Part shown: piece by piece, positions 26,452 to 63,945 of the stretch | Layout: each line of letters begins with the position of its first letter | How positions within the stretch are numbered: the stretch's first letter is position 1 | Origin: an uncultured delta proteobacterium | Lineage (GTDB): Bacteria > Desulfobacterota > RBG-13-43-22 | Length of the DNA stretch: 64,000 nt | Reading direction: 5' to 3' | NCBI GenBank assembly: GCA_963790475.1 | Contig: CAWBOS010000001.1 | Span: forward strand, 96,001 to 160,000 | Made by a program: the position numbers and the translations under genes | The notes under the pieces: generated by a model | What the model was told of the DNA's origin: nothing | Database searches by the model: none | The model's input: the letters and a program-made list of their open reading frames with translations, nothing else

Positions 26452-26589
26452 AAATGGGGTCGGGCCACGGAAACAATTTGGTTTGACAGGGGATGCTGTC
26501 AATTCTGACCCCTAAAATCGGCCTATATTGTGTTTTTTGGGGGCAAAGAGGACGTTATCCGAAAAACAAATGGCAAGGGCAAAGCGACA
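26452..26589 (+). repeat. RAYT-element left end including the first codons (MARAKR)
   Basis: Colinear with 23017-23154; ATG at 26570. Confidence 0.8.
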
Positions 26590-26627
26590 AGACCTGGTCC
26601 CCTTGACATTACTAAAGGAGGCGAGGC

Positions 26628-27086
26628 ATGTTTAAGGTCAGATTTGTTCTGTTGGGTCTGCTAACAGGCGCAGTCGTTGCCGGTTGTGCATCTTTGGGGT
26701 CGACTGGTGGAAATAGCCAAGGATTGGTAGGGGCGTGGATTGTGACAGCCAGCCGCCCGCCTGGTGTGGGAAAGAACCTTCTTACCTTTTCGTCGGATGG
26801 CACTTTCTTTCGAAGCGGGGATACACATCCGGTTCTCAGTGGCGGGCATGGGGCCTGGAAGCGGGTCGGCGATAGGGAGTTTGATGCCACTTATATCGCG
26901 TTTCGATTCGATCAAAACGGAAAGTGGATCGGAAGCACCAAGACGCGAATACACATTATCTCTGGCCCTGGAGACAACGAATTTACGGGCGTGGCCAAGG
27001 TCAGCACACGGGACTTGAAGGATGATGAGATTGGGACGTCCGAAGTGCGTCTTGAGGGAAAACGTATCCAGGCTGAGCCGTTCTGA
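26628..27086 (+). CDS. Putative lipoprotein, beta-strand rich
   Basis: AAGGAGG RBS; signal peptide with lipobox VAGC. Confidence 0.7.
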   Translation: MFKVRFVLLGLLTGAVVAGCASLGSTGGNSQGLVGAWIVTASRPPGVGKNLLTFSSDGTFFRSGDTHPVLSGGHGAWKRVGDREFDATYIAFRFDQNGKWIGSTKTRIHIISGPGDNEFTGVAKVSTRDLKDDEIGTSEVRLEGKRIQAEPF

Positions 27087-27153
27087 CATCACGCCTTACA
27101 GCGTGGTGTTGGCTAAGATGATTCGCAGCCTTTTAAGATCAGGGTCGAATTTC

Positions 27154-27290
27154 AAACCATGACAATTTTAATTCATATAATCCGGTGTGTTGTTGCATTA
27201 GTAAATTGCGAACCCTATAGACTTCCAAATCACCGAACCGTCTGGCCACATGACTTACGGGCCAAAGAAGGTTTTTCGATTCTTACCTAA
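27154..27290 (+). repeat. Mosaic intergenic repeat, copy 1
   Basis: aaaccatgacaattt...aatccgg...accgaaccgtc.ggccaca...ttcgattc; also at 32976, 37629, 44104 and 58335. Confidence 0.85.
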
Positions 27291-27305
27291 AAGGAGGGAA
27301 TTTCG

Positions 27306-28526
27306 ATGAAAAGGTATGGGGATTTTATCACTTCGGACGAAGATCTGGCCCTTTTGACATCCATTCGAAAATATATCGATAAAGAGGTGATGCCGATTCG
27401 CCTGAAACTGGATGAAGACTATGCTGCGTTTGAAAAGGCCTATGAAGGTCTGGTCAAGCTTGGAGTCCAGAAGCGGGGTTTCTCGCCCGAATATGGCGGC
27501 TTGGGGATCCGGTCGGCAACCACGATCTGCGCCATCACCGAAGAGATATCCCGGGGAGACAGCGGGCTGTCCCTTCACGCTCTCATTATCCCCTGGTGCC
27601 TGGCTGCAGCCATGGGTGCCCGTAATAAGCCCCTCATGGACCAGTTCATTCCCATGTTCTGTGGAGATACTCCTCGATGCGGATGTTTGGCCATTACCGA
27701 ACCGGCCGGAGGCTGCAATATTGAAGATGCGGCCGAGAAGGGGCTGACCATTCGGACCAGGGCCAGGCTGGATGGAGACGAATGGGTGATCAGCGGTGAA
27801 AAAATGTGGCCCAGCGGAGCCGGTGTGGCCGACCTCTACTGCGTGGTCTGCACAACGGATCCCAAACAGAAAGAACAGGGGATGGCTCTGATCTATGTCC
27901 CCAAAGACACCCCTGGCCTTTCCTTCGGGAAACCGGAACAAAAAATGGGAATGAAGGTAACGGACTTCAATGGCGCGATCTACTTTGACGACGTGAGGGT
28001 GCCTAAAGAATATCGAGCCGGTGGACCCGGGATAGACTGGCAGCTTTTCAGGAACAATGTTTCCTGGGGCCGACTCTCGAGCGCCCCCATGACCCTGGGA
28101 AATGCCCAGGCCGTTTTAGATATCGTCATCGAACATACCCGGACAAGGACCTATGGAGGGAAACCCGTTCGGAACCATTCGCTGCAGGCAGCTTTGATCG
28201 CGGACATGGCCATCGGCATAGAATCGGCCCGCGCCTTTTACCTATCCGTGGCGGCCATGTTCAACAATCGGAAGAAATATGGAAATCCTAATGAGGATTA
28301 CCTGATGGCCCGGACCAGTGCGGCCAAGGTCTATGCCTGCGATGTAACTGAGATGGTCTGTAACCGGGCAATGGAACTCATGGGTTCTTATGGCTATGCC
28401 CGCGAATACCATGTGGAGAAGTACCTCAGGGACTCCAAGATCATCCAGATATGGTTGGGGGGCGGACAACTGGGAAGGTTGGATGTGGTTCAAAGCTATT
28501 ACCCATACATTGAGGGCCAAAAGTAA
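27306..28526 (+). CDS. Acyl-CoA dehydrogenase
   Basis: AITEPAGG, GEKMW, KMG, MGSYGY and EKYLRD motifs. Confidence 0.92.
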   Translation: MKRYGDFITSDEDLALLTSIRKYIDKEVMPIRLKLDEDYAAFEKAYEGLVKLGVQKRGFSPEYGGLGIRSATTICAITEEISRGDSGLSLHALIIPWCLAAAMGARNKPLMDQFIPMFCGDTPRCGCLAITEPAGGCNIEDAAEKGLTIRTRARLDGDEWVISGEKMWPSGAGVADLYCVVCTTDPKQKEQGMALIYVPKDTPGLSFGKPEQKMGMKVTDFNGAIYFDDVRVPKEYRAGGPGIDWQLFRNNVSWGRLSSAPMTLGNAQAVLDIVIEHTRTRTYGGKPVRNHSLQAALIADMAIGIESARAFYLSVAAMFNNRKKYGNPNEDYLMARTSAAKVYACDVTEMVCNRAMELMGSYGYAREYHVEKYLRDSKIIQIWLGGGQLGRLDVVQSYYPYIEGQK

Positions 28527-28636
28527 GGATTGGGGCAAATCTACTTTTGACCTTTACCCTCTGTTCCATCTTTTCCCAGGACGTCCGGTTTACCGCCCCG
28601 GCTACCCGGTTGATATAGATAATTTTCTTTATCAGG

Positions 28637-29023
28637 TCATGGAGCGGTTTTTGGAATATTCAAGGACATCAGGCACATTCCCCACCGACCATCGACTTTG
28701 GTCACGATCCAAAGTGCCTCGTGCGTCATATATTTGGTGCCGTCGGCTTTATAACGGCTGTAAGCCAGCTTGAAGTGAACTTTGTTTTCCCACACCTGCA
28801 CCGGCTCGATATAGTCAAAGGCGCTATGGTGCCAGCCCTCGGTTTCTACCAGTGTCTGGGTAGGAGATTCGAAATCAGAGGCCTTGGCGACAGGCCGCAC
28901 ACGGGTGTTAATAATCCAACTGAAGGGGAAATGCAGGTATTTGCGGATAGCTTCCTTATCCTGCGCGTTAAAGGCGGCAAAATAATCTTCCATGGCCTTT
29001 TTGGCCTCTTCAACTGCGGACAT
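28637..29023 (-). CDS. NTF2/SnoaL-like protein
   Basis: YFAAFNAQD...ALWIVTKVDGRWG; GGAGG RBS before ATG 29023. Confidence 0.7.
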   Translation of the reverse strand: MSAVEEAKKAMEDYFAAFNAQDKEAIRKYLHFPFSWIINTRVRPVAKASDFESPTQTLVETEGWHHSAFDYIEPVQVWENKVHFKLAYSRYKADGTKYMTHEALWIVTKVDGRWGMCLMSLNIPKTAP

Positions 29024-29154
29024 GATAATCCTCCCTATAAAATTTTTGTCTTGAAGCGCGCTGAGAATAATGGCCAACGTATTTCTTTTTCATAAGGAGT
29101 ATAGGAAGATCGATATTGGCTGTCAATATAGTTTTGATCCGACCTTCTGCAATA

Positions 29155-29792
29155 GAAATTATACGGTCACCTCCAACCACATTCACCTGCTCGTTGCTGA
29201 TGATGGAGGCAGAGATGTCATTCCCAATTCAATACAACTGGTGGCTGGACGAACGGGCCAAGAGTTTAATCAGAGAAAGAATCGAAAAGGGGCCTATTGG
29301 GAAGATCGCTATCATGCCACGGCAGTAGAAAGCGGCAATCATCTGGCAAGATGCATGGTGTATATCGACACGAATATGGTACGTGCCGGTGTGGTCAGCC
29401 ATCCATCATCGTGGCCTTTTTGCGGATATAATGAAATTCAAGCGCCTCGAAGAAAAAATGTGCTGATTGACTATGAAAGGGTGCAAGAGTTGCTTGGAGC
29501 TGGATCCTATGAGCAGCTAAGGCTCATTCACAAAGGATGGATTGAGGAATACTTGGGAAAGGGAGACAAAACCCGTCAAGACGAATGGACGAAAAGTATT
29601 GCCGTGGGAAGCAGGACTTTCATCGAGAATGTGAAAGCACTCTTGGGCTTCAGGGCCGCGGGGAGGGGGATCATAGAAGGCGGAGGAGGGTATCATCTTC
29701 GAGAGGGAGATGCATCCTATAAGGCTCTTTTTGGGCCTCAAAAAGACGATATAGGCCCTGAAAACACCTTTTTCTGGGACATTAATTATTAA
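29155..29792 (+). pseudogene. REP-associated HUH tyrosine transposase (RAYT/Y1_Tnp), N-terminus missing
   Basis: SNHIHLL (HUH), WEDRYHA, YIDTNMVRAG and W..CGY; right-end motif cgtggcccgacccaat at 29808-29823. Confidence 0.85.
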
Positions 29793-29945
29793 TAATCCAC
29801 AAGTTGTCGTGGCCCGACCCAATGCCAGCAATGCCACTTTTTCACCTATTGATTGGGGACCTTATTACCAATTGGTGGAGGCCGGAATGGCGTGTCTTGA
29901 ATGTCCCCAATAACGAAAACCTTAACGGTCCGTTTAGGAGAATTT

Positions 29946-31130
29946 ATGCAAAAGTTTTTGATCTTTTTTTTAATCTTCATAGGTTTGGTGATAGTCCTGG
30001 TGGCGGGAATTACTATTTTTGGTAAGAATAGATTTATAAAATTAGTTTTACTGAAGATATCAAAGCCCGGTTCCGGCTTTGAATTATCCTACCGGATTCC
30101 GGCACCCGATTATGCCCGACCGGAAAACTGGGCGGCACTGCCTGATAGAAAAGACCTGGCCGATTTAGTCCCGAAAGGGGTTGCGCCGGGAGACGGGCAA
30201 GCGAAGGCCCCTGTTGACGTATTTTTTATTCACCCGACCGGGTATCTGCATGGCGACAGCTGGAACTCGCCTATGGATCCGAACAGCATTACCGAAGAAA
30301 ACACCCAATGGATGATGGCCAATCATGCCAGCGTTTTCAACGGATGCGGCAGGGTTTACGCGCCCAGGTACCGGGAAGCCGTTCTTTATTCCTTTATAAG
30401 TGATGACCAACAGCAGGCCGCAAAGGCCATTGATTTTGCCTATCGGGATGTGGAGGCGGCCTTCGATTATTTCCTGGAGCATTTCAGCCGGGGACGCCCC
30501 TTTATTATCGCCAGCCATAGCCAGGGTACCTGGCATGCCCTCAAACTCCTCGCGAATCGCATTGACCGAACCGATCTAGTGCAGCGGTTGATTGCCGCCT
30601 ATATCATCGGCGGCCAGGTGACCGTTGAAGATATTGAACGGATGACCGATATTAAGGCCTGTAAAAACTCTACCGACCTCCACTGTGTGGTCCATTGGAA
30701 GACGTTCGCTGAGGGTGGCAAGGAAGATCGAATAAAACCGAACGAAACGTTTCTGTGCACCAATCCCTTATCCTGGAAGGTCGACAATGAGAGGGTACCG
30801 GCTGACTTCAATCGTGGAGCGGTTTTGCCGACCGGTAAATTTAATTTGAAACTTTGGGGAAAGGATAAGGCTAAAGGAACCGTATTCGGACCGCTGGAAA
30901 GCCCGATACCGAAACACACCTGGGCCCAGTGCCAATCCGGACTGCTTTATGTGGCAAAGCAAACAGACAAGGGGTTTTCAAAGTATCGGGCAATGAAAAA
31001 CTACCACGGATTGGACTATGCGCTTTTTTATATGGATATTCGGGAAAATGCCATTCAACGGGTCGATACCTATCTGAAGATGCACGGCTTAACCTGTAAT
31101 AAACACAGCTTGCCCGACGGCAAACATTGA
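29946..31130 (+). CDS. DUF3089-family alpha/beta hydrolase with N-terminal membrane anchor
   Basis: VDVFFIHPT, VYAPRYR, PFIIASHSQG and YHGLDY. Confidence 0.85.
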   Translation: MQKFLIFFLIFIGLVIVLVAGITIFGKNRFIKLVLLKISKPGSGFELSYRIPAPDYARPENWAALPDRKDLADLVPKGVAPGDGQAKAPVDVFFIHPTGYLHGDSWNSPMDPNSITEENTQWMMANHASVFNGCGRVYAPRYREAVLYSFISDDQQQAAKAIDFAYRDVEAAFDYFLEHFSRGRPFIIASHSQGTWHALKLLANRIDRTDLVQRLIAAYIIGGQVTVEDIERMTDIKACKNSTDLHCVVHWKTFAEGGKEDRIKPNETFLCTNPLSWKVDNERVPADFNRGAVLPTGKFNLKLWGKDKAKGTVFGPLESPIPKHTWAQCQSGLLYVAKQTDKGFSKYRAMKNYHGLDYALFYMDIRENAIQRVDTYLKMHGLTCNKHSLPDGKH

Positions 31131-31190
31131 CAAAGAAATTTTCTCTTCATATACTCCAGCAATACCTGATGCAATAGAAATGAGGCAAGT

Positions 31191-32335: not shown

Positions 32336-32418
32336 AACTCCCATGTTACCCATAACGTGGACAATCATAATTGAATATTTCAAATCGGTAATCGTTAGTC
32401 GACGGGAAATATAAACCA

Positions 32419-32952: not shown

Positions 32953-32975
32953 TACGGGGGTTGGGATCAATGCTT

Positions 32976-33085
32976 AAACCATGACAATTTGAATTATTTA
33001 ATCCGGGGCGTTCTTGAATCGGCCCATTGCTAACCCTGTAGACCCTCGAAGCACCGAACCATCAGGCCACACAACCGACGGGCCC
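32976..33085 (+). repeat. Mosaic intergenic repeat, copy 2, followed by a ggggtcgggccacg motif
   Basis: Aligns by eye to the 27154 and 37629 copies. Confidence 0.85.
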
Positions 33086-33243
33086 TTTTGAAAGGGGGTC
33101 GGGCCACGAGAACAAAATGAACTTACCTGGGATATTGAAAAATTTTCCCCTTTAAATAAGCCTGTAATGAGCTTTTTGAGACAAAAAAAGACAGTTTTCT
33201 CCCGGCCAAAGGAAGAGAAGTCATGGTTGGCGACAAACAGAAA

Positions 33244-35190: not shown

Positions 35191-36681
35191 ATGACTAAAA
35201 ATATCAGCGAACAATTGCAGCCTATTTTCAACGCGAGATCGGTGGCCGTGATCGGGGCTTCGAGTGCTCCCTTCAAGTGGGGTGCGCAAACGGTTCATCG
35301 GCTGATCAACTTTGGCTTCCATGGAGCCGTTTATCCCATCCATCCTAAGGAGAAGGACATTCAGGGACTCAGGGCCTACCCTTCGGTGCTGGACGTAAAG
35401 GAGTGCATCGATCTGGCGGTGATAACCGTGCCGGCGGAACGGGTCCCCCGGTCGATAAAAGAGTGTGTAAAAAAGGGGATCAGGGGCGCCATCATTATTT
35501 CGGCGGATTTCGCGGAAACCGGTGCGCGCGGTCGCGCTCTCCAGGAGGAAACCACGGAAATCGCACGGCAAGGAGGTCTCCGATTCGTGGGACCGAATTG
35601 TTTCGGACTTTTTAATTCCTCCAATGGTTTAAATACCCTTCCGACGGTTCCGGCCAAGGGAGAGATCGGTTTTATCTCTCAGAGCGGTTCCCTGGTGCAC
35701 ATGGTCGCCAGCGTCGCCTCAGCCAAAGGGTATGGGTTTAGTAAGCTGGTCAGCGCGGGGAATCAGGCCGACCTGGACGTCGCCGATTACCTGGAGTTTA
35801 TGGGGGAAGACCCGGAAACAAAATCCATCGTTATCTACCTGGAGGGTTTCAAAGACGGACGGAAATTCCTGAAGGTCGCCAGAGAAATCGCCGCTAAAAA
35901 GCCGGTCGTTATTTACAAGGCCGGGCGCCATCCCGGCAGCAATCGCGTATCCATGTCTCATACCGCCAATATGACCGGAGAGGACCGGGTCTTCGAAGCC
36001 ATGTGCCGCCAGGCCGGACTCATCAGGGCCAACACGCTGCAGGCCACTATGGATATGGCGGCCATATTGACCAAACAGCCCTCCCCCCATGGAAACCGGA
36101 TCGGGATTCAGGGGACCGGCGGCCAGTGCATGATTTTGACGGATACCTGCCTTTCTCTGGGCCTGGAAGTTCCGGAACTATCCGATGAAGAGGCGGAACA
36201 GGTGATATCCGGAATCGATTTTCCGGCCCATGCTCCGTTTCCCAGAAATCCGATTGACTTTGCCGGCAGTCATACGGCCCTGATGGATGCGACCGTCATT
36301 AATAACCTGGCCCGGCTGGACAAGATCGACGCCATCATTTCCTATCGGCCGGTCACCTTTCACCGTGAGTCAAGTGATTCTCCGGAACAGGTCGAGGAGA
36401 TGGACCGGAAAGTCGGAGAGTTATTGGCTGAAGCCCCCTGGAAATATGGGAAACCCCTGATTCTCATCGGCTTTGATCAGGCCATTAAAAACGAGGTGTT
36501 GCGGGGAAGTGAAATAATCGATCAGGCCTTAAAAGAGGCGGGCATATTGAGTTTCCTGACTCTGGAAGATGCGGCCGGGGCCATGCAGGCCCTGGTGAGC
36601 TATGCAAACATTAAAAGTAGAAATCGGGGACCAGACCAAGGGATTAAATTTTCAAAGAATTATACAAGAAGTGATGGGTAA
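35191..36681 (+). CDS. ADP-forming acyl-CoA synthetase alpha-subunit-like protein
   Basis: SVAVIGAS, GPNCFG, ISQSG, GNQAD, SHTA (phospho-His) and NPID. Confidence 0.88.
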   Translation: MTKNISEQLQPIFNARSVAVIGASSAPFKWGAQTVHRLINFGFHGAVYPIHPKEKDIQGLRAYPSVLDVKECIDLAVITVPAERVPRSIKECVKKGIRGAIIISADFAETGARGRALQEETTEIARQGGLRFVGPNCFGLFNSSNGLNTLPTVPAKGEIGFISQSGSLVHMVASVASAKGYGFSKLVSAGNQADLDVADYLEFMGEDPETKSIVIYLEGFKDGRKFLKVAREIAAKKPVVIYKAGRHPGSNRVSMSHTANMTGEDRVFEAMCRQAGLIRANTLQATMDMAAILTKQPSPHGNRIGIQGTGGQCMILTDTCLSLGLEVPELSDEEAEQVISGIDFPAHAPFPRNPIDFAGSHTALMDATVINNLARLDKIDAIISYRPVTFHRESSDSPEQVEEMDRKVGELLAEAPWKYGKPLILIGFDQAIKNEVLRGSEIIDQALKEAGILSFLTLEDAAGAMQALVSYANIKSRNRGPDQGIKFSKNYTRSDG

Positions 36682-36971
36682 AAGAGACCTTAAGCCGGCT
36701 TTTTATCCCCAAAAAGAAGCCTTTAAGAGGAATACCGATTCTGTGCAGAGGTAGGGGGTCAGGTTCAGAATCTTGCATACTCTAACGTATTAAAGGGGAA
36801 CACCGGGGTAGCAGGTTGATCTTTAAAAGACTGGGCATCCGACCTGGATTCCGGCAGAACTCTATAGAGGGACCCGGCAGCATGTTATAGGGACCAGAAA
36901 GCAACATTCCGCATCTTATGTGGATCCATCTAATTAATGTCGGCTGCCAAAAGAAGGGGAGATAGAACATC

Positions 36972-37565: not shown

Positions 37566-37628
37566 GTGAACATGCCAACCAAGAGTTGCCCAAGTGGAGA
37601 AGGCCATGGGGTCTCGGGGGCAAATTTT

Positions 37629-37840
37629 AAACCATGACAATTTGAATCATATAATCCGGGGCGTTGTTGAATTGGTATATTGCGAACCCTTAAGACCCCC
37701 AGAGCACCGAACCGTCCGGCCACGCCACCAACGATTCAAAGAATGGTTTTCGATTCCTGCCTGAATGAAGAAGACGCCCTCCGTCCCTTTGGCTTTGCCT
37801 TATTTTTCCCCTTGATTCTGTCTTTTTCTTGATTTAAACT
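37629..37840 (+). repeat. Mosaic intergenic repeat, copy 3, with promoter module
   Basis: Repeat body, then TTGATT-17-TAAACT (37812-37840). Confidence 0.8.
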
Positions 37841-37881
37841 CCTATCATCAATCTTATCAATTCTTATCTACAGTATATTGG

Positions 37882-38148
37882 ATGTTCGGACCCCAAAAAA
37901 ACATCACCGTTAAAATAAAACTCTATGGGGGTCTGGACCGACTCGCTAAAACAGATCACTACGACCCGGAGGCGGGAATTGAGATCCAAATAAAGCAGGG
38001 TGCCCGGCTGAAAAAAGTATTTGAAAAAATCGGTCTGAGCCGGCGCGAATCTGTTGTTTGTTTTGTCAACGGCAAAAACGTCGGTTTTGACGAAAAGCTT
38101 ATGAACAATGATGTTATTTTTTTCATGCGACCCGCATCCGGCGGTTAA
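37882..38148 (+). CDS. MoaD/ThiS-family sulfur carrier
   Basis: Ubiquitin-like size, C-terminal GG, upstream of the AOR gene. Confidence 0.85.
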   Translation: MFGPQKNITVKIKLYGGLDRLAKTDHYDPEAGIEIQIKQGARLKKVFEKIGLSRRESVVCFVNGKNVGFDEKLMNNDVIFFMRPASGG

Positions 38149-38331
38149 CCAGTTTCCATCCGGTAATGGCCTTCTTACCAATAAGCTGTGCTCTCCGCGG
38201 GGAGGAGCAAAAGCGTTGCATACATACGGCAGTCTGTGAGCATTTTGAGCCGACCCCCAATCCGCTGAGGGCGGACCATGGTTATTTAGATACATTTTTG
38301 AGGTTCTCATAACCACTTAGGAGGTGTGACG

Positions 38332-40296
38332 ATGTCTGGAGGCTATGTAGGCAAGTATGCTGTTGTTGATTTGTCATCCGGAGCGACGGATATCGTCAAG
38401 TTGTCTGACGATTTTTATCAAAGGTTTCTGACAGGATATGGTCTGGGGGCGGCGGTTATCACCGAACGTCAGAAAGCCGGTATCGATCCGCTTTCACCGG
38501 ATGCTCACCTGGGTTTTTGCTCGGGTCTTTTAACCGGGACAGGGGCGCCTTTTTCAGGCCGGTTCATGGTGGTCGGCAAATCGCCCCTGACCGGCGGCTG
38601 GGGGGATGCGAACTGCGGCGGTCACCTGTCGCGCGAGATCAAGCGGGCCGGTTTTGATGCTGTTTTTTTCACCGGCTGCGCCGATAAACCGGTCTGGGTC
38701 AACATCAATGATCAGGGTGTAGTGATCAAAGACGCGGCAGACCTATGGGGCAAAGACACCGTTGAAACCGAAGAAAAAATTATAAGGCAACTTGGGGATA
38801 AAAAGGTTCGGGTGGCGGCAATCGGGGTGGCCGGAGAGAAGCTTTCCTTAATTTCCGGCGTGGTGACCGAGGGCGGCAGAATTGCCGCCCGCTCAGGCCT
38901 GGGGGCGGTCATGGGCAGCAAAAAGCTGAAAGCGGTCGCTTTCAGTGGCAGCAAAGAGATCCCGGTGGCCCGACCCCAGAGCGTCAAGGACCTGACGTCG
39001 CGATACCTGTCGGATTTTAAGAGAAAGCCGCGACTGATGGACAAAATAAGCATCCGGTTCCTTGATGGTGTCAGCAAAATAATTTCCAAAACCGGTATCC
39101 GCTTTCCGGCCGAACCCGGCACGGTCAGGGAACTCTGGAGCCGCTGGGGCACCTGCGGTCTGACGGTCTATTCGGCCCTGATCGGGGATATGCCTATTCG
39201 CAACTGGGACGGTGCCGGATATGTCGACTACACTTTTGAGATGGCCGACCGGGTATCGGGCGAAAAGGTCATCAAGCAGCAAAAGCGAAAATATGCCTGC
39301 CAGAGCTGTCCGATGGGTTGCGGCGGCCTTATCGATATCGAGGCCGGCCGCTACCAGGGGACCACCGGCCACAAACCGGAATACGAAACAATGGCTGCTT
39401 TCGGGGGGCTGATCATGCACCATGATCTTGCGGCCATAATCGAGCTGAACGAGATGTGCAACCGCGCCGGCATCGACACGATTTCCGTGGGGGGAACGGT
39501 TGCCTTTGCGATCGAATGCTTTGAAAAAGGGCTCATCGACTCAAAGGCGGCCGGCGGACTCGATCTGGGCTGGGGCAAAACCGAAGCGATTGTAAAGCTG
39601 ACCGAGATGATTATCAACCGTGAAGGTTTGGGTGATCTATTGGCCGACGGCGTCAAAGCAGCTTCCGCGAAAATAGGAAACGGTTCGGAGGCCTTTGCCA
39701 TGCACGCCGGGGGTCAGGAGCTTCCCATGCACGATTCCCGGCTCGACCCCGGATATGCCATTGCCTACCAGTGCGAACCGACCCCCGGGCGCCACACCAT
39801 CGCCAGCTACCAGGATGCCGACCTACGGAGCGGAAAGAAACTATTTCCGGAGGTCCAACGCATGTTCAAGAGCGCCGACAACAAAGAAAGCAAAAAGATT
39901 GCGCTGCACACGGCCGCCAGCATATACGCGCAGCTGATCAACTGCAGCGGATTGTGCCTTTTAGGCGTAGACAGCCTGGATTACCCCATGGTCGAATATC
40001 TCAACGCCGTCACCGGTTGGGATCTTCCGGCGGATGAATATTTCAAGACCGGCCGCAGGATTCAGGCTCTGCGCAAGGCATTCAACCTGCGCGAAGGATT
40101 GCGACCAGGGGATGCAAAATTACACCCGCGCGCCCTGGGCAGTCCGCCACAAACCGCCGGGCCGCTCAAAGGCAAGACCATTGATCTCGATTCGCTGCAA
40201 GCCGTCTATTACCGGATTCTGGGATTTGATCCGGCCACCGGTGGTCCCACTCCGGAAACCCTGCAGGAGCTGGAAATAGATCACCTTTTTGCCTGA
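38332..40296 (+). CDS. aor: Aldehyde ferredoxin oxidoreductase (tungsten AOR family)
   Basis: KSPLTG, GLGAVMGSKKLKA, CxxCxxxC, PEYET, GIDTIS and HDSR. Confidence 0.92.
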   Translation: MSGGYVGKYAVVDLSSGATDIVKLSDDFYQRFLTGYGLGAAVITERQKAGIDPLSPDAHLGFCSGLLTGTGAPFSGRFMVVGKSPLTGGWGDANCGGHLSREIKRAGFDAVFFTGCADKPVWVNINDQGVVIKDAADLWGKDTVETEEKIIRQLGDKKVRVAAIGVAGEKLSLISGVVTEGGRIAARSGLGAVMGSKKLKAVAFSGSKEIPVARPQSVKDLTSRYLSDFKRKPRLMDKISIRFLDGVSKIISKTGIRFPAEPGTVRELWSRWGTCGLTVYSALIGDMPIRNWDGAGYVDYTFEMADRVSGEKVIKQQKRKYACQSCPMGCGGLIDIEAGRYQGTTGHKPEYETMAAFGGLIMHHDLAAIIELNEMCNRAGIDTISVGGTVAFAIECFEKGLIDSKAAGGLDLGWGKTEAIVKLTEMIINREGLGDLLADGVKAASAKIGNGSEAFAMHAGGQELPMHDSRLDPGYAIAYQCEPTPGRHTIASYQDADLRSGKKLFPEVQRMFKSADNKESKKIALHTAASIYAQLINCSGLCLLGVDSLDYPMVEYLNAVTGWDLPADEYFKTGRRIQALRKAFNLREGLRPGDAKLHPRALGSPPQTAGPLKGKTIDLDSLQAVYYRILGFDPATGGPTPETLQELEIDHLFA

Positions 40297-40581
40297 AAAC
40301 AGGCAGTCTTCAGGGCAGGCCAGAGTCAAGAGGAAAAGGTTCTCCGAAGCAAAAAGGAGAAATTTTTTCTCACATACTTTAAACCCGATAGAACTATCCC
40401 AAGGTCTCCAACGCCATTACCCTTGTTGAAATTTCAAAGGTTGATGTGTCAGCGATAACTTCACTGTACCGGCATGAGGACATAGGGGTTTTCTGAAGGA
40501 AACGGGCCTATGCAGATCCGGAGTTAACCTGCCGGATAAAGCACGACGGTGGATTCGGATATAAAAACCTCGAAAGACAGG

Positions 40582-41007: not shown

Positions 41008-41330
41008 ACCAAATTCCTCTCCATTAAGGTAAAACATGACAAACCATGAGAAAGATCGAGATGCTTTTGATAAGTTAGCGGATGCCTGGAGAAGCCTTCC
41101 GGAGGACCGGCGAAAGCGGATATTTATAGCTCTTCCTGTCTGTGAGCCAAGTCGATTTTCGGATGTCCCTCCTGACCCTGAGGAGTTGAACTTTATCTAA
41201 GAAATCCTTTTTTTAGCACGGCAGTGCATTGACATATGGGAGAAGGGTCAAGTTTACGTTTGACTTTTATTGTGGGGTCTCGAGGTCAGCCATTAAAAGG
41301 CCACGACAAAGTGGGGGAGGTCGGGTCTAG

Positions 41331-41470
41331 TTTCTTGACATTGTGCAAAAACCAGGGACAGCGCCCGTTTCTTCACCTCCCTTTCTTTTAATGGAGAAGA
41401 AGACGCCATTCGTCTCCTTATCTTTCGATTTGCTTTTCTCCTTGCCCCGGTCCTTTTGTTGCCTTATACT
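41331..41470 (+). promoter_or_regulatory. Repeated promoter module (near-identical to 48213-48351)
   Basis: Shared ccagggacag...atggagaagaagacgccattcgtctcctt; TTGCCC-17-TATACT at 41442-41470. Confidence 0.75.
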
Positions 41471-41554
41471 TTTCCCATTCAAAACCTAGACTTCTCGGAT
41501 TTTCGGGAGACAGGTGTTTCAAAATTTTTAGTATTAACTGGAGAGGAAAAACCA

Positions 41555-42828: not shown

Positions 42829-43068
42829 ATTGGAGTCGGGCCACAGGAACTATTTATATCGCCTTTCGATTCGATCAAAACGGAAAGTGGATCGGAAGCA
42901 CCAAGACCCGGATACACATTATCTCCGGCCCTGGAGACAATGAATTTAGGGGCGTGGCCAAAGTCAGCACACGCGACTTGAAGGATGATGAGATTGGGAC
43001 GTCCGAAGTGCGTCTTGAGGGAAAACGTATCCAGGTTGAGCCATTCTGACATCACGCTTTACGGCGTG
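42829..43068 (+). pseudogene. RAYT left-end motif fused to the 3' part of the 26628 lipoprotein gene
   Basis: attggagtcgggccac followed by about 215 nt nearly identical to 26891-27106. Confidence 0.88.
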
Positions 43069-43434
43069 ACCTTGGGTCAACCTGAGGTGTAGCGTTGCCC
43101 CATACCTGTTTAATGTTTTTGGGTTAAAATCTAAGTAGGGTGTCCCCCGATTTCACATGGCCCCGGGGTCTGGAGATTTACTTGACGAATGGATAAAAAA
43201 GTCAATGATTCGGAAACCGACTACAATGCTTTCCTGGTTTCGGGACACTCTTCAGTGCAAAAAATTGGGAAGATTTTAACAAAAAATAGTAAAAGGATTA
43301 AAATAGGGATCAAAACATTTAAACTGAGAGTCGAATTACTTAAAAAGGGAATCAAAGGAAATATAAAGGATACCTAAAGCATAAAAAAGGCAGGTTCCGA
43401 GATTGAGACCTGCCCTTTCCTTTCCGTTCATAGA

Positions 43435-43820: not shown

Positions 43821-44067
43821 TTAGCCCTCACTGTCTTCGAAGAATCGCCCGGAATAGGTGAAGGCCTGAGGGGAAAGGGTCAAGCTAAGCCCATTAACTT
43901 TTATATCAATATCCATGCCAAAAGGGGTGTCCTCTTGGCGCATGATCCCATGAACTCCCTTAGCAGCCTGATCCCTTTTGTCGTCTGACTGGAAAGGCTC
44001 CCGGATTAAGGGTTCAAGACCGCCTTCCATTTGGACAAGGAATTTACCGAAAATTTTAGGGGACATT
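43821..44067 (-). CDS. Hypothetical protein or fragment
   Basis: ORF only; start uncertain. Confidence 0.3.
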
Positions 44068-44103
44068 GTTCTGAATTGACTAAAGGGAAGCGGCGTCAAA
44101 TCT

Positions 44104-44317
44104 TAAACGGCAATTTGAATTATTTAATCCGGGGCCTTGTTGAATCGGTATATCGCGGACCCTGTAGACCACCAAAGCACCGAACCGTCAGGCCACATGA
44201 CTGACGGGCCTAAGAAGGTCTTTCGATTCCTGCCTGAAGGGAAAAAGGATCACTATCTACTCCCTTGCCTTCACCCCTGCTTTTCCCCTTGACCGAGCCT
44301 TTTCCTTTCCCTATACT
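44104..44317 (+). repeat. Mosaic intergenic repeat, copy 4, with promoter module
   Basis: Repeat body, then TTGACC-17-TATACT (44289-44317). Confidence 0.85.
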
Positions 44318-44398
44318 CTTTCTATCAAAAAGGGAGTTCTAATCAAAAAAAGCTGTCCCCCTCGGTTTTACACTCCTCAACGGGAAAAAAGGCGATCA

Positions 44399-44890
44399 AT
44401 GGTCTACGTTCTGATGGGAGTTTCGGGGAGCGGAAAAACCACGGTAGGAAAGCTGCTTGCCGAAAAGCTCGGCATTCCTTTTATCGACGCCGACGATTTC
44501 CATCCGACCTCGAATATCGAAAAAATGAGGAACAAGATCCCGCTCAACGATGATGACCGCGCTCCCTGGCTCGCCGCGATCGCCGGGAAAATGCGCGAGG
44601 CAAACGCAGCGCGGGGCGCGGTCGTGGCCTGCTCGGCGCTCAAGGAAAAATACCGGAAATTGCTTAGGGGCGGCAGCCCGGCAATACGTTTCATTTTCCT
44701 AACGGGCGACAGGGAGTTGATCGGCCGTCGCCTTCTGCAGCGGCGCGGCCATTATATGCCGCCAGATCTCCTTGACAGTCAGTTTGCCGCGCTGGAAGCG
44801 CCCGAAGATGGCCTCGCTGTTTCCGCGGATAAGTCGCCTCCTGAAATATGCGATGAAATCATCAAGCGGCTGGATAGGCAAAAAGATTAA
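44399..44890 (+). CDS. gntK: Gluconokinase
   Basis: MGVSGSGKTT, DADDFHP, PLNDDDRAPWL, CSALK..YR and SQFAALE. Confidence 0.9.
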   Translation: MVYVLMGVSGSGKTTVGKLLAEKLGIPFIDADDFHPTSNIEKMRNKIPLNDDDRAPWLAAIAGKMREANAARGAVVACSALKEKYRKLLRGGSPAIRFIFLTGDRELIGRRLLQRRGHYMPPDLLDSQFAALEAPEDGLAVSADKSPPEICDEIIKRLDRQKD

Positions 44891-45078
44891 ACTCTCAAAG
44901 AATTATACAAGAAGGGATGGGGGAAAGAGGCCATAAAAGTGAACAATATGACACAAGAAACCATTTGGTCAATAGGTCTTTTTTAAGAACGGAGATTGAC
45001 TTTTTTTGAATGGAGTAGCCCTGCCGGCGGGGTTTTAGGCGTTATTGTCGATTCCGGGTGACGATTATGGAGGTATTT

Positions 45079-48212: not shown

Positions 48213-48351
48213 TTTCTTGACATTCTAAAACCAGGGACAGGGCCCGTTTTTTCACCTCCCTTTCTTTATTAATGGAGAAGAAGACGCCATTCGTCTCCTT
48301 AACCTTCGATTTGCTTTTCTCCTTGCCCCGGTCTTTTTCTTGCCATATACT
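48213..48351 (+). promoter_or_regulatory. Repeated promoter module
   Basis: TTGCCC-17-TATACT at 48323-48351; duplicate of 41331-41470. Confidence 0.75.
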
Positions 48352-48471
48352 CTTATACAGTTGTCCCTTATTAAGGCATTTTACAACAAACCATCCTAAT
48401 CGACTCGTAACTCAGCGGCTGAATTTTGTGTCCTCAATTATCTTCATTTCCTATTAAAGGAGACACCACCA

Positions 48472-54096: not shown

Positions 54097-55753
<1,657 letters not shown>

Positions 55754-55765: not shown

Positions 55766-56122
55766 TTATTCTATTACGCCTAAGATGTCTTCTTCTCGCA
55801 TCATTAAAAATTCTTCGCCTTCAATCTTTATTTCGGTCCCGGAATATTTTCCGAATAAAATTTTGTCCCCCACCTTGACATCCAGTGTCAATTTAGTCCC
55901 ATTTTCCAAGATCTTACCTGGCCCTACGGCAATAACCTTGCCTTCTTGGGGTTTTTCCTTGGCGGTATCCGGGATAATAATTCCTCCTTTGGTCTTTTCT
56001 TCTTCCTCAAGCCTTTGGGGTTTTTCCTTGGCGGTATCCGGGATAATAATTCCTCCTTTGGTCTTTTCTTCTTCCTCAAGCCGCTGTACAATGACCCGAT
56101 CATGTAATGGCCTAATTTTCAT
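55766..56122 (-). CDS. groES: Co-chaperonin GroES with a 23-aa tandem duplication
   Basis: [19 protein letters not shown] (twice) and GDKILF. Confidence 0.9.
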
Positions 56123-56803: not shown

Positions 56804-56939
56804 GGAAATAACTTATAGAGACCCTATTGAGGTCGAAAGAAGGGTCTTTCGTTTCCTTCCGGAGACGAAGCCGACCCGGATAAGGAATTCATTGGCTGGT
56901 ATGAGCCTTCTATATTTTAAATGAAATGGAGGTTGAAGC

Positions 56940-57223: not shown

Positions 57224-57443
57224 TAAATAGCGTTCCGTTCTTTGAAGAGGCCGATTGTTACAATCTTAGGAGGATCGAGGGTCAGGTTCAGAATCTTGCC
57301 CATGCCTTGCAAATTCTAGCTGAAATCTCAAAGCTAATGGAGAAGGGGTCAAGGCCAGGTGTGACTTTTATCATGGGGTCACGGGGTCACCCTGATCCTA
57401 CCCCAGTCTAACGCACAGTCACGAATTAGCGGGATTGTAAAAC

Positions 57444-58268: not shown

Positions 58269-58334
58269 ATTGAATCTTGGGAGAAGGGTCAAGTCTATGG
58301 TTGACTTTTCTTACCGGGTCTCATGGACAAATCT

Positions 58335-58520
58335 TAAGCCATGGCAATTTGAATCATTTAATCCGGGGCGTTGTTGAATCGGCATATTGCGAACCCTGTG
58401 GACCAGCAAAGTCTCGAACCGTCAGGCCACATGACCGACGGGCTAAAGCAGGCCTTTCGATTCCTGCCTAAATGGAGAAAGGATCACCATCTTCTCCATT
58501 TCCTTCCGCACTATTTTTCT
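58335..58520 (+). repeat. Mosaic intergenic repeat, copy 5
   Basis: Aligns to the 44104 copy, including ggatcac.atct. Confidence 0.85.
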
Positions 58521-58703
58521 TCGTGGCCCTCCCTTTTTTTAATAAGCTTACTGTCAATAAGTAATTTTTTATTAAACTGAGTGCCACGACTCAGGGGGTT
58601 GTGTTAAATCTCCTTGACAGGCAAAACTATTTTTCATATCGTCAAATCACGTAAAAAGGAACTTCTTCTCAACTTTATTGGCTTTTTGCCGGGAGGTATT
58701 TAG

Positions 58704-59750: not shown

Positions 59751-59863
59751 CGGCTTCGTGGTGAATCGAGAGGGTTGTAAAATTTCTCATAAGCCAAAAG
59801 GGCGCATTTATTTGGGATCAGGGGTCGGACCACCTGAACTGAAAATTTCATCATTATTTCTCC

Positions 59864-59892
59864 TTGCTCCGGTCCTTTTCTTGACTTATACT
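59864..59892 (+). promoter_or_regulatory. Repeated promoter module
   Basis: TTGCTC-17-TATACT with spacer cggtccttttcttgact, related to the copies at 41442 and 48323. Confidence 0.65.
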
Positions 59893-59970
59893 CTTCCCAT
59901 CAAAAATGAAATTCCGGCCAAAAGATTCTTATTTATCACTCCTTGACGGATTCTTCCAGGGAGGTCAACC

Positions 59971-60437: not shown

Positions 60438-60517
60438 GGTCTGCTGCCGATTAGCCGAATGGGGCCCGGACCAGGGGAAGTAAACTTCACCAAGGTTTAA
60501 ATAATAGGAAGGAAACC

Positions 60518-62311
60518 ATGAAAAGGAAAAAGGCCATACGTATCGGGGGCGCCTCGGCGTTTTTGGGGGATTCCTCCATAGCGGTGCCCCAGCTCATCCA
60601 AGGTGGACAGGTTGATTATATTATCATGGATTATTTGGCCGAAGTGACCATGTCCTATCTGGCCCGGTCGAAGGCCAAACGCTCCCACATGGGCTACGCC
60701 CCTTATTTCGTGGAGGTCACCATGTCCCAAAATATCCGGGAGATCGCCGGAAGGGGAATTAAAATCGTGACTAATGCCGGAGGTATAAATCCCCAGGCCT
60801 GTCGCGACGCCGTTTTGAAGATAGCCGATCATCAGGGGGTCAAGGTCAACATTGCGGTGGTCGAAGGGGACGATCTGATGCCCCGCCACGCGGAACTGGC
60901 GGCCCGTAATATCACCGAAATGAACACCGGGGAACCCTGGCCGGAAAAGATGATGAATATGAACGCCTACCTGGGCGCCCAACCGATCAAAGAAGCCCTG
61001 GATATGGGTGCCGATATCGTGATTACCGGCCGGGTGGTGGACAGCGCCCTGACCCTGGGACCTCTGATGCATGAATTCGGGTGGCCTGAGACCGACTATG
61101 ATCTGCTGGCCGCCGGAAGCCTGGCCGGGCACATCATTGAATGCGGGGCCCAGGCTTCCGGCGGGTTATTCACCGATTGGCAGGAAGTTCCCGACTGGGC
61201 CAATATCGGATACCCGGTAATCGAATGTTACCAAGACGGCCGTTTCGTGGTAACCAAACCGGTTGATACCGGGGGGCTGGTGGTCCCCGCCGCCGTCTCG
61301 GAACAAATGCTTTACGAGATCGGCGATCCCCAGATCTACCTTTTACCGGATGTGACCGGCGATTTTTCGCAAGTCCGGATGAACCAGATAGGGGAAAACC
61401 AGGTGGAAGTCTCCGGGGCCGTCGGCCGGCCTCCGACATCGACCTATAAGGTGTATGGGGCCTTTCATGACGGCTACCGCTGCATTGCCGTATTGCCGGT
61501 GATCGGCATGCAGGCCGTTCAAAAGGCCGAACGTCAGGCCAGGGCCCTTATTGAAAGGACCGAAGCCATTTTCCAAAAACAGAGTTTCGGTAAATACCGG
61601 GCCACGCTGATCGAATGCCTGGGGGCCGAATCCGCCTATGGTCCGCATGCCCGGACCAGAGATACCCGGGAAACCGCCTGTAAAATTTCTTTGGAACATG
61701 ACCTCCGGGAGCCTCTGGAAATCTTTGCCAACGAGGTCTTCGCCCCCACCACATCCATGGCGCCGGGCACCACCGGCTGGTTTGCCGGTAAACCAGCCGT
61801 ATCCCCGGTGATCAAGCTCTTTTCCTTTCTAATTCCCAAAGGGGAAGTCCCTTTTCAGGTCACGGTGGGGGAACAGAAACGGTCTTTCAGGCCGGAACCA
61901 GGGAACACCTTTGATCCGGGCTCGATTGTCCGACCCCGGGTGGAAGACGCCGGACAGGCTCCGGGGGATCTCCTTACCGTTCCTCTGATTCGACTGGCCT
62001 GGGGACGCAGCGGCGATAAGGGGAATTCATGCAATATCGGCATCATCGCCCGGAAGCCGGAATTTCTGCCTTTCATTCGTAAGGCGCTCACCCCCTCGGC
62101 CGTTCATCAATTTATGAACCATGTGTTCGACGGGGCCAAAAATCCGAGAGTGGAGCGATTTGATCTGCCGGGCGTCCGGGCCTTGAACTTCGTACTGCAT
62201 GAATCTCTGGGGGGCGGGCAAGCGGCCTCGTTGCGCCTCGATCCGCTGGCCAAGGGAATGGCCCAGCAACTTCTGGAATTCCCGATCCCCATTCCGGCTT
62301 CGCTGCTTTAA
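60518..62311 (+). CDS. Acyclic terpene utilisation AtuA-family protein
   Basis: DYLAEVTM, NAGGINP, NAYLGA, GHIIECGAQASGG and RSGDKGN. Confidence 0.9.
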   Translation: MKRKKAIRIGGASAFLGDSSIAVPQLIQGGQVDYIIMDYLAEVTMSYLARSKAKRSHMGYAPYFVEVTMSQNIREIAGRGIKIVTNAGGINPQACRDAVLKIADHQGVKVNIAVVEGDDLMPRHAELAARNITEMNTGEPWPEKMMNMNAYLGAQPIKEALDMGADIVITGRVVDSALTLGPLMHEFGWPETDYDLLAAGSLAGHIIECGAQASGGLFTDWQEVPDWANIGYPVIECYQDGRFVVTKPVDTGGLVVPAAVSEQMLYEIGDPQIYLLPDVTGDFSQVRMNQIGENQVEVSGAVGRPPTSTYKVYGAFHDGYRCIAVLPVIGMQAVQKAERQARALIERTEAIFQKQSFGKYRATLIECLGAESAYGPHARTRDTRETACKISLEHDLREPLEIFANEVFAPTTSMAPGTTGWFAGKPAVSPVIKLFSFLIPKGEVPFQVTVGEQKRSFRPEPGNTFDPGSIVRPRVEDAGQAPGDLLTVPLIRLAWGRSGDKGNSCNIGIIARKPEFLPFIRKALTPSAVHQFMNHVFDGAKNPRVERFDLPGVRALNFVLHESLGGGQAASLRLDPLAKGMAQQLLEFPIPIPASLL

Positions 62312-62396
62312 GGACCGATTTTTCCCCGGCCGGGGTTATAGTTTTCAATGATAGTCTATTAGAACCCAAGGTGAATTTCCAGGGACGGATGCCCGG

Positions 62397-62690
62397 TCAG
62401 TCCCAATACCCAACTTGTTTGAAGCGGAGGGTCATATTCCCGCATTGGGGACAAAGATAGTTGGTATCCGGTAGAACGAAAACTCCCTTGGGGTAGGCGT
62501 TCCAGGAGAAGACCTTTTTAGCGTCCTTCGAGCTCTTGCCGGAATTTGGCATTTTCTCCTGGAGTGAAGGATCATTGTAGAAGACGACTTTTCCGCTGCA
62601 GGCTTTACACTGGGGATCATTTTCCAGCCAGTTGAGAATTTCCATGTCGCCACCCTGGTAAGCCAGATCGTAGTCGGCGTACTCGACCTC
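62397..62690 (-). pseudogene. C-terminal fragment of a Zn-ribbon-like hypothetical protein
   Basis: CKAC and CPQCG, ending GYWD; the 5' part overlaps the cyclase remnant. Confidence 0.4.
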
Positions 62691-62699
62691 ACCACGCCC

Positions 62700-63945
62700 A
62701 TGAATTTCATCACCACCCACTTTTTAACGCTGGCGCAAGGAGGTAAGCCGGTATTCACTCTTTTCGGACTCCAGCGTTCATCACCGGTGATGGTGATGGT
62801 CCTGGCTCCTCTCGTGGTTATCATTTCCATCATACTCCGACCCATATCAAAATGTATCCGTATGTGGGGGCAAGGACAAGAACCCTCCCTTCAACTTCTA
62901 AGCAGGGCCCGCCAACGTCTCCTGAATGTGCCCTTTCTTATCATTCCTACCCATCTGCTTTTGTGGATTACCCTGCCCGGATTCTTCTTCGGATATGGCA
63001 CCCTCACCGAAAACATAGATGCTCACTCAGCCCTGGTGCTCTGGATAAGAACCGCCATGGTCGGCTTCATCGCCACTGCCTTCGCTTTCTTTTCCACCGA
63101 ATCCCAGGCGCGAAAGTTGCTCATCCCCTATTTTTTCCGCAAGGCCGGCTCGTTGAAATCAAGGGAGCTGCCCGATTGCTCATTAGCAGGAGAATCCGGG
63201 CCGTGTATCGCCTCTCAGGGGGGTGCGGGTGGTCAGCAATGACGAAATCGGGGCACTGGGGGATTCCACAAATACTATGATCGAGGGGCTGGCCGAAAGG
63301 GAAGTAATACGTTCGATGTTCGGCAGGTATGTGTCGCCCGAAATCCGGGACGAAATTCTGAGCGGGCGCATCCCGCTCGAAGGAGAATTGAGGGAAGCCA
63401 CGGTGCTGTTCGCGGATCTGAGGGATTTCACTCCCTTGGTCGAGTCGATGCCGCCGAAGGAGGCGGTGAAGATAATCAACGGGTATTTCCAGGCCATGGA
63501 CGAGGCCATACGTCAACACAATGGACTAATTCTGCAATACATCGGGGATGCGATCCTGGCGGTTTTCGGAGTACCCCTCCCGCGCGCGGATCACCCCGCC
63601 TCAGCGTCACGCGCGGCCCTGGCAATGTGCAGGGAACTCGAAAAATTCAACGCTATGATCGCCCTGGAGGGAAGAAAACCTATCCGTCACGGGATGGGTG
63701 TGAACACCGGCATGGTACTGGCCGCCAATATCGGAAGCCACGATCGGGTGACTTATTCCCTAATCGGGGATGCGGTGAACGTCGCCTCCCGAATTCAGGA
63801 TCTCACCAAAGATTTTGACTACGACATTATTCTGAGCGAGACCACCCGGCAAAGTCTGGGCCAAGAATTCATCCTCAAGAAATTGCCGCCAGCAAGAGTG
63901 AAAGGCAAACAGAACCCGTTAAACCTCTACGCCTTACTTGGCTAA
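62700..63945 (+). pseudogene. Membrane HAMP / class III adenylate-guanylate cyclase, frameshifted and deleted upstream of an intact cyclase domain (63223-63945)
   Basis: LFADLRDFT, YIGDA, IGDAVNVASR and VKGK; frame switch at the T-run near 63131 and a jump near 63220. Confidence 0.8.

Follow-up and report, generated by a model that had tools for sequence, protein, structure and literature searches.

Recurrent upstream modules in a co-oriented accessory gene array of an uncultured Desulfobacterota bacterium

Results

Gene organization of the zone and copies of the repeat

The window analyzed here, G000:C1:96001-160000, is a 64,000-nt stretch of contig C1 in the genome of an uncultured Desulfobacterota bacterium (G000; 6.34 Mb in 20 contigs, ~49% GC). 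We studied the zone at window positions 26452–63945, which carries an array of mostly co-oriented genes and a recurrent intergenic repeat. The repeat core of ~150 nt is termed AB (A, the 5′ half; B, the 3′ half), and a separate module located 3′ of AB is termed C. The first-pass annotation of this DNA regarded the zone as an integron-like array in which foreign genes may be captured repeatedly next to the repeat. On our map, ~29 open reading frames (ORFs) or remnants lie on the + strand and six or seven on the − strand in 26452–63945, in good agreement with the imbalance given there (~26 versus ~7). The + share is 64–92% per 20-kb bin over C1 40–200 kb and reaches at least 0.78 in 7 of the 62 100-kb bins of the genome, so that the strand bias of the zone is unremarkable. 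Since GC skew and coding strand are correlated (r = 0.74), the leading-strand bias that the annotation named as a possible cause is inseparable from the array architecture. The three units singled out as GC-rich are at the 95th (44399), 93rd (57444), and 99th (58704) percentiles among 4343 genome ORFs. The units spread from the 1st to the 99th percentile, and the GC heterogeneity of the zone is at the 71st–86th percentile of 30-ORF windows.

The five copies of the repeat reported previously belong to one direct family in the window (27162, 32983, 37636, 44109, and 58343, all +), with 60–83% identity to the reference copy over 195 nt in the repeat search. Alignment of the five copies gives a conserved core of ~140–150 nt. 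When they were searched with blastn against the whole 6.34-Mb genome, the matches merged to nine places, every one on the + strand of C1. Profile searches with nhmmer gave similar distributions: all nine matches to A on C1 (+), eight matches to B on C1 (+) and one on C12 (+), and nine matches to AB on C1 plus two weak ones on C12. The nine clear AB copies range over C1 51–187 kb (136 kb). The core is thus not spread evenly through the genome but is held by one contig. Because ~78% of the genes there are on the + strand, the common orientation of all nine copies is only mildly surprising (0.78^9, ~0.11). The pairwise likeness is 70–85% among eight of the copies and 44–60% for the ninth (50996). 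The copies w44104 and w58335 share 85% identity over ~150 nt.

The positions of AB relative to genes should be noted. In seven of the nine copies, A starts 0–56 nt after the stop codon of the upstream + gene, and in the two further copies the upstream ORF runs ~20 nt into the start of AB. The module fills the interval from the stop of one gene to the next gene and points at the downstream gene, which is present behind eight of the nine copies. In two copies, B ends in the ribosome-binding site (RBS) and ATG of a long ORF, namely, an acyl-CoA dehydrogenase (ACAD; 27306) and a class-V aminotransferase (C1_50996, outside the window). A C module is located 3′ of B in six or seven of the nine copies. 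The genes behind AB, tabulated copy by copy, are unrelated by Pfam: the aminotransferase, the ACAD, a ThiS-like gene with an aldehyde:ferredoxin oxidoreductase (AOR), a shikimate-kinase-like protein, an α/β hydrolase, a family III CoA-transferase, a GGDEF protein, and one unknown. AB occupies 5 of the ~30 junctions in the zone.

AB copy 1 (27142..27291, +; E = 4e-39 with the AB profile in nhmmer) runs directly into the RBS and ATG of the ACAD gene (27306) without C. Copy 2 (32964..33093, +) has its B truncated by a REP-like/D2 element at 33091–33186 (REP, repetitive extragenic palindromic), and the next ORF is an FAD oxidoreductase on the − strand, leaving no co-oriented gene. Copy 3 (37616..37766, +) is followed by a predicted C promoter (37770–37851), the ThiS-like gene (37882), and the AOR gene (38326). 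It contains TTTAAA-18-TATAAT and is the sole A module with a σ70-like match in the scan. Copy 4 (44094..44238, +) is followed by a predicted C promoter (44245–44332) and the shikimate-kinase-like gene (44399). Copy 5 (58324..58473, +) is preceded by a D8 lead-in (58269–58329) and followed by a degenerate C (58479–58561) and the α/β hydrolase gene (58704). With respect to start codons, C extends from −154 to −67 and AB from −305 to −161 before 44399, while AB extends from −164 to −15 before the ACAD gene.

A 222-nt direct repeat (26891–27112 and 42854–43075, 93% identical) is found 30 nt 5′ of AB copy 1 and ~1 kb 5′ of copy 4. AB copies 1 and 4 are 79% alike, and the neighboring repeat segments therefore differ in history.

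Module C as a predicted promoter

Module C is predicted from its sequence to be a stereotyped σ70-type promoter. Its −35 and −10 boxes are separated by a conserved 17-nt spacer, with a T-rich tract on the upstream side and a start region, likewise conserved, at the downstream end. In w44104, TTGACC-17-TATACT at 44289–44317 matches the consensus at 10 of 12 positions. After one profile iteration, 81 copies were found on seven contigs and both strands, 19 of them on C1, and a co-oriented ORF is located downstream in 71 of the 81. Matches to C were also found in all 13 of the genus relatives described below, mostly to query positions 163–241. Considering these 81 copies and 13 relatives, the 3′ third of the repeat as first described is a predicted promoter class common to the genome and the genus, and AB alone is local.

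C is conserved over ~70 nt, from ~45 nt 5′ of the first base of the −10 box to ~25 nt past it, the spacer and the putative first transcribed bases included, with a frequency of at least 80% at ~30 of its 69 consensus columns. Such conservation is far above the needs of the −35 and −10 boxes, and common descent or a factor contacting the spacer may be its cause.

Six C-type modules are located inside the zone, each 5′ of a unit. The D5-type copies (41388, 48269, and 59810) consist of C and a piece of B without the AB core. Among them, C at 41399..41484 (+) stands before a second ACAD gene (ORF from 41456) and C at 48280..48355 (+) before a DUF3795 gene (48472). C at 59857..59908 (+), with a REP-like motif before it (59822), is upstream of an amidohydrolase fragment and the AtuA gene. 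In the window outside the zone, the C profile matches 1270–1352 and 6924–7010, both on the − strand.

Comparison with relatives in the genus

The zone was compared with 13 other genomes of the genus (G002, G004, G005, and G008–G012 among them). Similar runs of co-oriented single genes, with B and C modules in between, were found in G004:C46 (~225–257 kb), G010:C29, and G008:C30. Gene order is not conserved in the relatives. The order in G004 differs from that in G000: there the AOR and ACAD units, a unit from 59 kb of C1, and a DUF3089 unit follow one another, with other genes between them. The array units of G010 and G008 map onto six different G000 contigs.

High-scoring segment pairs (HSPs) of the G004 array have a median identity of 91.5%, with 9 of 13 at 88% or above. 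A single 388-kb contig and a 16-kb backbone stretch served as the baseline. Syntenic backbone HSPs have a median of 81.2%, with only 6 of 105 at 88% or above, and the difference from the array is significant by the Mann-Whitney test (p = 5e-5), though the HSPs are not fully independent. The 16-kb backbone stretch is 75–87% identical in all 13 relatives, apart from one 710-nt piece at 88%. In contrast, zone units at 88–95% are found in varied relatives: the ACAD unit in G004, G010, and G009, the second ACAD in G011 and G012, the AtuA unit in G010 and G002, a short-chain dehydrogenase/reductase in G005 and G011, and an M55 peptidase in G011.

Three units illustrate how far the homology extends. 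The ACAD unit (27306..29160; ACAD on +, a 146-aa gene on −) is 94–95% identical to copies in G004 and G010 that lie in other contexts, and its − strand gene has a TTGACA-17-TATACT of its own. The AOR unit (B, C, the ThiS-like gene, and AOR; 37697..40310, +) matches G004:C46 at 84% in the leader and 94% in the genes, with homology running from the A/B boundary to 14 nt past the stop codon. The AtuA unit (60504..62348, +) is 93% identical to G010:C29, with the match beginning ~14 nt 5′ of the ATG and extending ~40 nt past the stop, between different neighbors. Throughout, homology between species stops within tens of nucleotides of the ORF ends, with no junction motif in common.

Some of these breakpoints fall in the repeat itself. 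The ACAD homology starts inside B, and the 5′ half of A (A1) is replaced in G004 and G010. Before AOR and ACAD, the A1 segment is a different one in G004 and G010. The A core is nearly absent from relatives with the same genes, and AB is missing from the M55 peptidase and α/β hydrolase units of relatives. The M55 unit in G011 ends at 58280, just before D8 and AB, while the hydrolase unit in G004 starts 21 nt before the start codon. Since these homologies stop short on both sides, the AB-C segment between M55 and the hydrolase belongs to neither neighbor.

The leaders differ in affinity from the genes behind them. In comparisons that span 59–75 nt, the B leader of the ACAD gene in G000 is 82–86% identical to two local paralogues and 69–75% identical to the leaders of the G004 and G010 ACAD genes, which are 90% alike mutually, whereas the ACAD genes themselves are 94–95% identical to that of G000. 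Likewise, the AOR leader is 83% identical to a local paralogue and 74% identical to the leader of its orthologue. As both leaders are nearer to local paralogues than to the leaders of their orthologues, the module appears to have been swapped independently of the gene.

Sequencing runs were also consulted. Of the 20 runs listed, only one contained half or more of the sampled words, and four were examined. The data are short contigs, and the joints listed as skips from AB to AB are either sequences of further AB copies or derived from relatives, and thus give no information on excision or circles. In the contigs of the RNA run, only parts of the ACAD, ACS, and AOR genes were found, at 90–98% likeness.

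In G004, the segment C46:225173-257665 forms a 32-kb accessory array whose flanking backbone genes are separated by only 3.8 kb in G000:C10:1684974-1688752. The proximity of the flanking genes in G000 marks this site as an insertion hotspot.

Coding, structural, and junction properties of AB

AB is non-coding, with stop codons in every frame. A short ORF in B (27250–27312), overlapping the ACAD start by ATGA, was considered as a leader peptide and rejected, since its start codon is lost in w37629, G010, and C1_176214. A search of the window against Rfam at the gathering threshold gave no match, and a search of 43900–44500 in E-value mode gave chance matches only (E ≥ 0.46). The consensus fold of AB by RNAalifold is −10.3 kcal/mol for five copies and −1.1 kcal/mol (−1.13) for nine, with almost no covariation, and single copies fold no better than shuffled sequences (z = −0.37 and +0.87). 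AB is therefore not considered to be a structured RNA or riboswitch. ARAGORN detected no tRNA or tmRNA gene in the window, and an origin of AB as a tRNA or tmRNA attachment-site remnant was rejected.

Neither terminal inverted repeats nor a hairpin was found in AB and C by inverted-repeat listing and folding, and no terminator-like site was found at the AB and C copies scanned. An exact 19-mer of A searched in 185,579 species genomes, the own genome left out, gave three unrelated single matches (Lentimicrobiaceae, Acholeplasma, and Sulfotelmatobacter). GGGGTC, which recurs at module starts, was rejected as a junction site because it is not enriched (44 found versus 41.3 expected).

C1 has no sign of being a plasmid or an integrative and conjugative element. 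The Pfam scan covered 73 ORFs from C1 1–96 kb and, in 160–256 kb, 8 ORFs near AB copies. Among the 73, only metabolic genes were found, and genes for replication, transfer, or transposition were not. Nor is C1 likely to be a foreign contig binned wrongly: its tetranucleotide distance ranks 7 of 24 chunks, which is no outlier, and it has repeat families in common with other contigs. An uncultured Desulfobacteraceae bin is the closest named relative for one G000 gene.

Recombinases and REP-like elements

Six recombinase and transposase families were profile-searched across G000. Consistent with the first-pass annotation, which reported no integrase, none of the 17 genome matches to PF00589 is on C1. 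The same holds for IS91-type transposases (3 genome matches) and rve (8), and resolvase and TnpB have no match in the whole genome. Y1_Tnp has 20 matches, of which a single, partial one is on C1 (23.8 bits, E = 1.9e-4). The annotation also found no attC site. Among the 25 inverted-repeat pairs listed out of 27, no recurrent junction palindrome was observed, though a weak attC at non-AB junctions could escape such a comparison.

Motifs interspersed in the zone had been likened to the ends recognized by REP-associated tyrosine transposases (RAYTs). A REP-like 12-mer indeed occurs eight times in the window with at most one mismatch, against 0.27 expected, and 7 of its 13 exact copies in the genome are on C1. 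A REP-like element adjoins one of the nine AB copies, which it truncates. A degraded RAYT/IS200-like ORF is located at 29070..29792 (+). It matches Y1_Tnp positions 45–120 only (E = 1.3e-4, just below the Pfam cut-off), and the unmatched N-terminal part is presumably where the HUH motif resides. The 3′ end of this ORF is repeat D4, and the inverse of the REP-like 12-mer follows its stop codon (29809–29820).

The D2 element at 26452..26547 (+), which is similar to REP elements and to MITEs (miniature transposable elements with inverted repeats), starts with the 12-mer GGGTCGGGCCAC and has short inverted ends. Copies of this family are located at 23018–23154, 25722–25817, 26452–26589, and 33091–33186, and the query positions 1–138 have many matches in the genus relatives. 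The D13 repeat occurs at 3′ junctions (36633..36693, +, and 44876–44936), overlapping the ORF ends of the ACS and shikimate-kinase-like genes. Four D13-related copies punctuate the array in G008:C30, 1.1–2.6 kb apart, with the REP-like motif at their start. D2 and D13 are two related families resembling MITEs and REP doublets forming hairpins (REPINs) at gene 3′ ends, and D13 covers the last codons of two ORFs. The lead-in motif reported previously is recovered as a three-copy family, D8, starting at 41228, 57329, and 58269. It extends over 41228..41288 (+), 57329–57389, and 58269–58329, with a weak hairpin and a T run (−2.4 kcal/mol, z = −0.14).

Discussion

Interpretation of the repeat and rival explanations

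The array described above agrees in part with the initial proposal of a capture array around the repeat. The mosaic of non-syntenic units of one to three genes, the reordering of units in other species at identities above the backbone, some breakpoints located in or at the repeat, and the restriction of the AB core to one contig were all observed. The role of AB as the capture site is not supported, considering that AB is present at 5 of ~30 junctions, that the M55 and hydrolase units of relatives are without it, and that the leader travels with, or is swapped before, genes already existing elsewhere. The reading to which we give about even weight is that the repeat consists of reusable upstream promoter and leader modules, akin to the mobile promoters and phage cassettes discussed below, in a recombination-prone accessory region, and is not a recombination site. 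AB would be an upstream or leader segment of ~150 nt multiplied only within one accessory-rich stretch of C1, and numerous single-gene transcription units, in this genome and throughout the genus, would be served by the C promoter. The modules may have spread locally and been homogenized by RecA-type homologous recombination or gene conversion between upstream regions, and swapping of promoters and leaders would be the outcome of that exchange. The patches of shared homology flanking the units may then ease deletion, swap, and insertion of whole units, DNA of related species included, and a cassette-like co-oriented array could result without a dedicated recombinase.

We regard as doubtful the stronger form of this proposal, in which the promoter-leader modules (B and C genus-wide, AB here) serve as portable homology handles through which RecA-type recombination excises, inserts, and swaps single-gene units, those coming from other species included. 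Equally doubtful is its corollary that such handles would build chromosomal cassette arrays free of integrases, as a cellular counterpart of the module shuffling described below for phage cassettes. If the modules are recombination handles, they would indicate how sulfate reducers with large genomes, without the help of integrons or transposons, build up and trade their many paralogous catabolic genes as single-gene units ready for expression, and the mobile-promoter phenomenon would gain a concrete locus, with arrays in at least four species. If not, the zone would be a flexible island of the usual kind whose local promoter consensus is strong, and same-strand intergenic repeats there would be expression signals rather than recombination sites.

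Several points weigh against modules that are exchanged among units. The AB copies are only 70–85% alike, which points to an old spread with no recent event in evidence. A σ70-like match inside A is found in only one of the four window copies scanned, so that AB itself may be a promoter, an untranslated region, or an operator. The leader comparisons are modest, as margins of a few percent over such short spans do not exceed the noise. Stronger purifying selection on these enzymes could account for part of the elevated identity of array units, and unit boundaries at ORF ends are also expected from generic illegitimate recombination followed by selection. Membership of C1 in G000 is probable rather than certain on composition, and the contamination flag (9.68%, with completeness rated at 100%) counts here as well. 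Transcription starts, promoter activity, and recombination events are predictions from sequence.

An ordinary flexible island is a tentative alternative. AB and C would be paralogous upstream regions derived from old segmental duplications and a strong promoter consensus, with no role in gene flux, while units turn over by generic illegitimate recombination and selection. The old, 70–85% alike AB copies, the small share of junctions that carry them, the interspecies HSPs ending at ORF ends with no motif in common, and the ordinary levels of GC heterogeneity (71st–86th percentile) and strand bias (7/62 bins) fit such an island. Such an island does not readily explain why the G000 leaders are closer mutually than to the leaders of their orthologues, which requires exchange between copies, nor why three other species have similar co-oriented arrays with B and C modules. 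The conservation of C over ~70 nt, including the spacer, beyond the needs of a −35/−10 consensus, is also difficult to explain in this manner. It is unlikely that AB is instead kept alike by selection as the target of one regulator, either a protein or a small RNA, that co-regulates unrelated catabolic and signaling genes of C1. AB stands before genes in eight of nine copies, abuts the RBS in two, and holds long invariant stretches, and the genes behind it are mostly catabolic or signaling ones, as a regulon would require. However, similarity over 140–150 nt is far beyond the size of an operator, AB has no conserved structure, the truncated copy at 32964 has no co-oriented gene behind it, and the A core is nearly missing from relatives carrying the same genes.

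A dedicated system that inserts foreign genes next to the repeat, by an HUH/RAYT enzyme, a host Xer-type enzyme, or another site-specific recombinase, is very unlikely. The co-oriented array with unrelated cargo, the units common to species above the backbone identity, the start of A directly after upstream stops, as attC-like sites would do, the enrichment of REP-like 12-mers on C1 (7 of 13 exact copies), and the RAYT-like remnant in the zone speak for such a system. Yet C1 is without an intact HUH gene, integrase, resolvase, IS91, TnpB, or rve, AB has neither a hairpin nor inverted termini, and the unit ends share no short core motif, GGGGTC being at its expected frequency. The only AB copy that touches a REP-like element is truncated by it. 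The HUH/RAYT route put forward by the first-pass annotation, with one degraded RAYT-like ORF on its side, is unsupported beyond proximity.

Relation to known systems

Putative mobile promoters (PMPs) are highly similar non-coding sequences that, within a single genome, precede genes unrelated to one another (Matus-Garcia, Nijveen, and van Passel, 2012; PMC3575422). Some PMPs are common to several taxa, and their mobilization route is unknown, with no element-encoded enzyme (PMC3575422). They were defined pairwise by at least 80% identity over at least 50 nt in the −150 to −50 window of non-paralogous neighbors (PMC3575422). Pairs of AB copies reach 80% or more over at least 50 nt, and their downstream genes are non-paralogous by Pfam. 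Unlike PMPs, the modules here are mosaic (A1, A2, B, and C), and form one family within 136 kb of one contig in one orientation. They punctuate arrays whose units pass between species, and AB lies mostly 5′ of −150. The C module before 44399 (−154 to −67) agrees with the PMP window.

The promoter-early stem-loop (PeSL) cassettes of T4-type phages contain a strong σ70-like promoter and are located in hyperplastic regions of non-essential genes (PMC2839356). Recombination between PeSL cassettes is regarded as the source of gene-module insertions, deletions, and replacements, as well as of mini-circles (PMC2839356). The modules of the zone resemble PeSL cassettes in being small regulatory cassettes with a predicted σ70-like promoter in a hyperplastic accessory region. 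They differ in being located on a bacterial chromosome, longer, and more diverged, with a weak hairpin (D8) at three sites only and no consistent terminator stem-loop. Recombination here is read only from homology breakpoints at the A/B boundary and in B, plus the leader swap.

Integrons are similar in overall layout, together with clusters of attC sites lacking integrases (CALINs). The co-oriented array, its unrelated units of one to three genes, the repeat just after the upstream stop, and the absence of a nearby integrase, as in CALINs, are all shared. The attC sites are imperfect palindromes of 57–141 nt that fold as single strands, and integron cassettes are mostly promoterless and depend on a common Pc promoter. 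In contrast, C1 has no IntI, AB is neither palindromic nor folding, many units have a promoter of their own by prediction, and most junctions are without the repeat. By the features tested, the array is not an integron or a CALIN. REP/REPIN-RAYT systems and MITEs are likewise short intergenic repeats, and the REP-like 12-mer with its inverse partner beside the RAYT-like remnant and the inverted ends of D2 are reminiscent of them. AB and C differ from these in having no inverted termini or hairpin. The REP-like motif is also rare (13 exact copies in the genome), and the RAYT-like ORF is partial. A limited literature search on intergenic repeats and cassettes in Desulfobacteraceae gave nothing relevant among the top 10 of 233 entries, which is no claim of their absence from print.

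Other features of the zone and the window

The shikimate-kinase-like gene (44399–44890) behind AB copy 4 has no match at E ≤ 1e-10 among the matches listed for the 13 relatives (56 further matches are outside that list). Together with its GC content at the 95th percentile, this makes it a candidate recent acquisition. On the − strand, a GroEL/Cpn60 gene (54097–55750) is broken up into one ORF of 321 aa and another of 216 aa and is therefore probably a pseudogene. Intact paralogues are located on C10 and C6 (85–88% identity), and the copies in relatives are 92–95% identical. A 68-nt tandem duplication at 55946–56082, whose two copies are 100% identical and 69 nt apart, lies immediately upstream of this broken, − strand GroEL gene.

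Outside the zone, a further set of direct repeats of 89–96% identity (D6, D7, D9–D11, D16, and D17) occurs in the window's first 11 kb, as exemplified by 2863–3152 versus 10452–10739 and by 4515–4646 versus 9210–9341.

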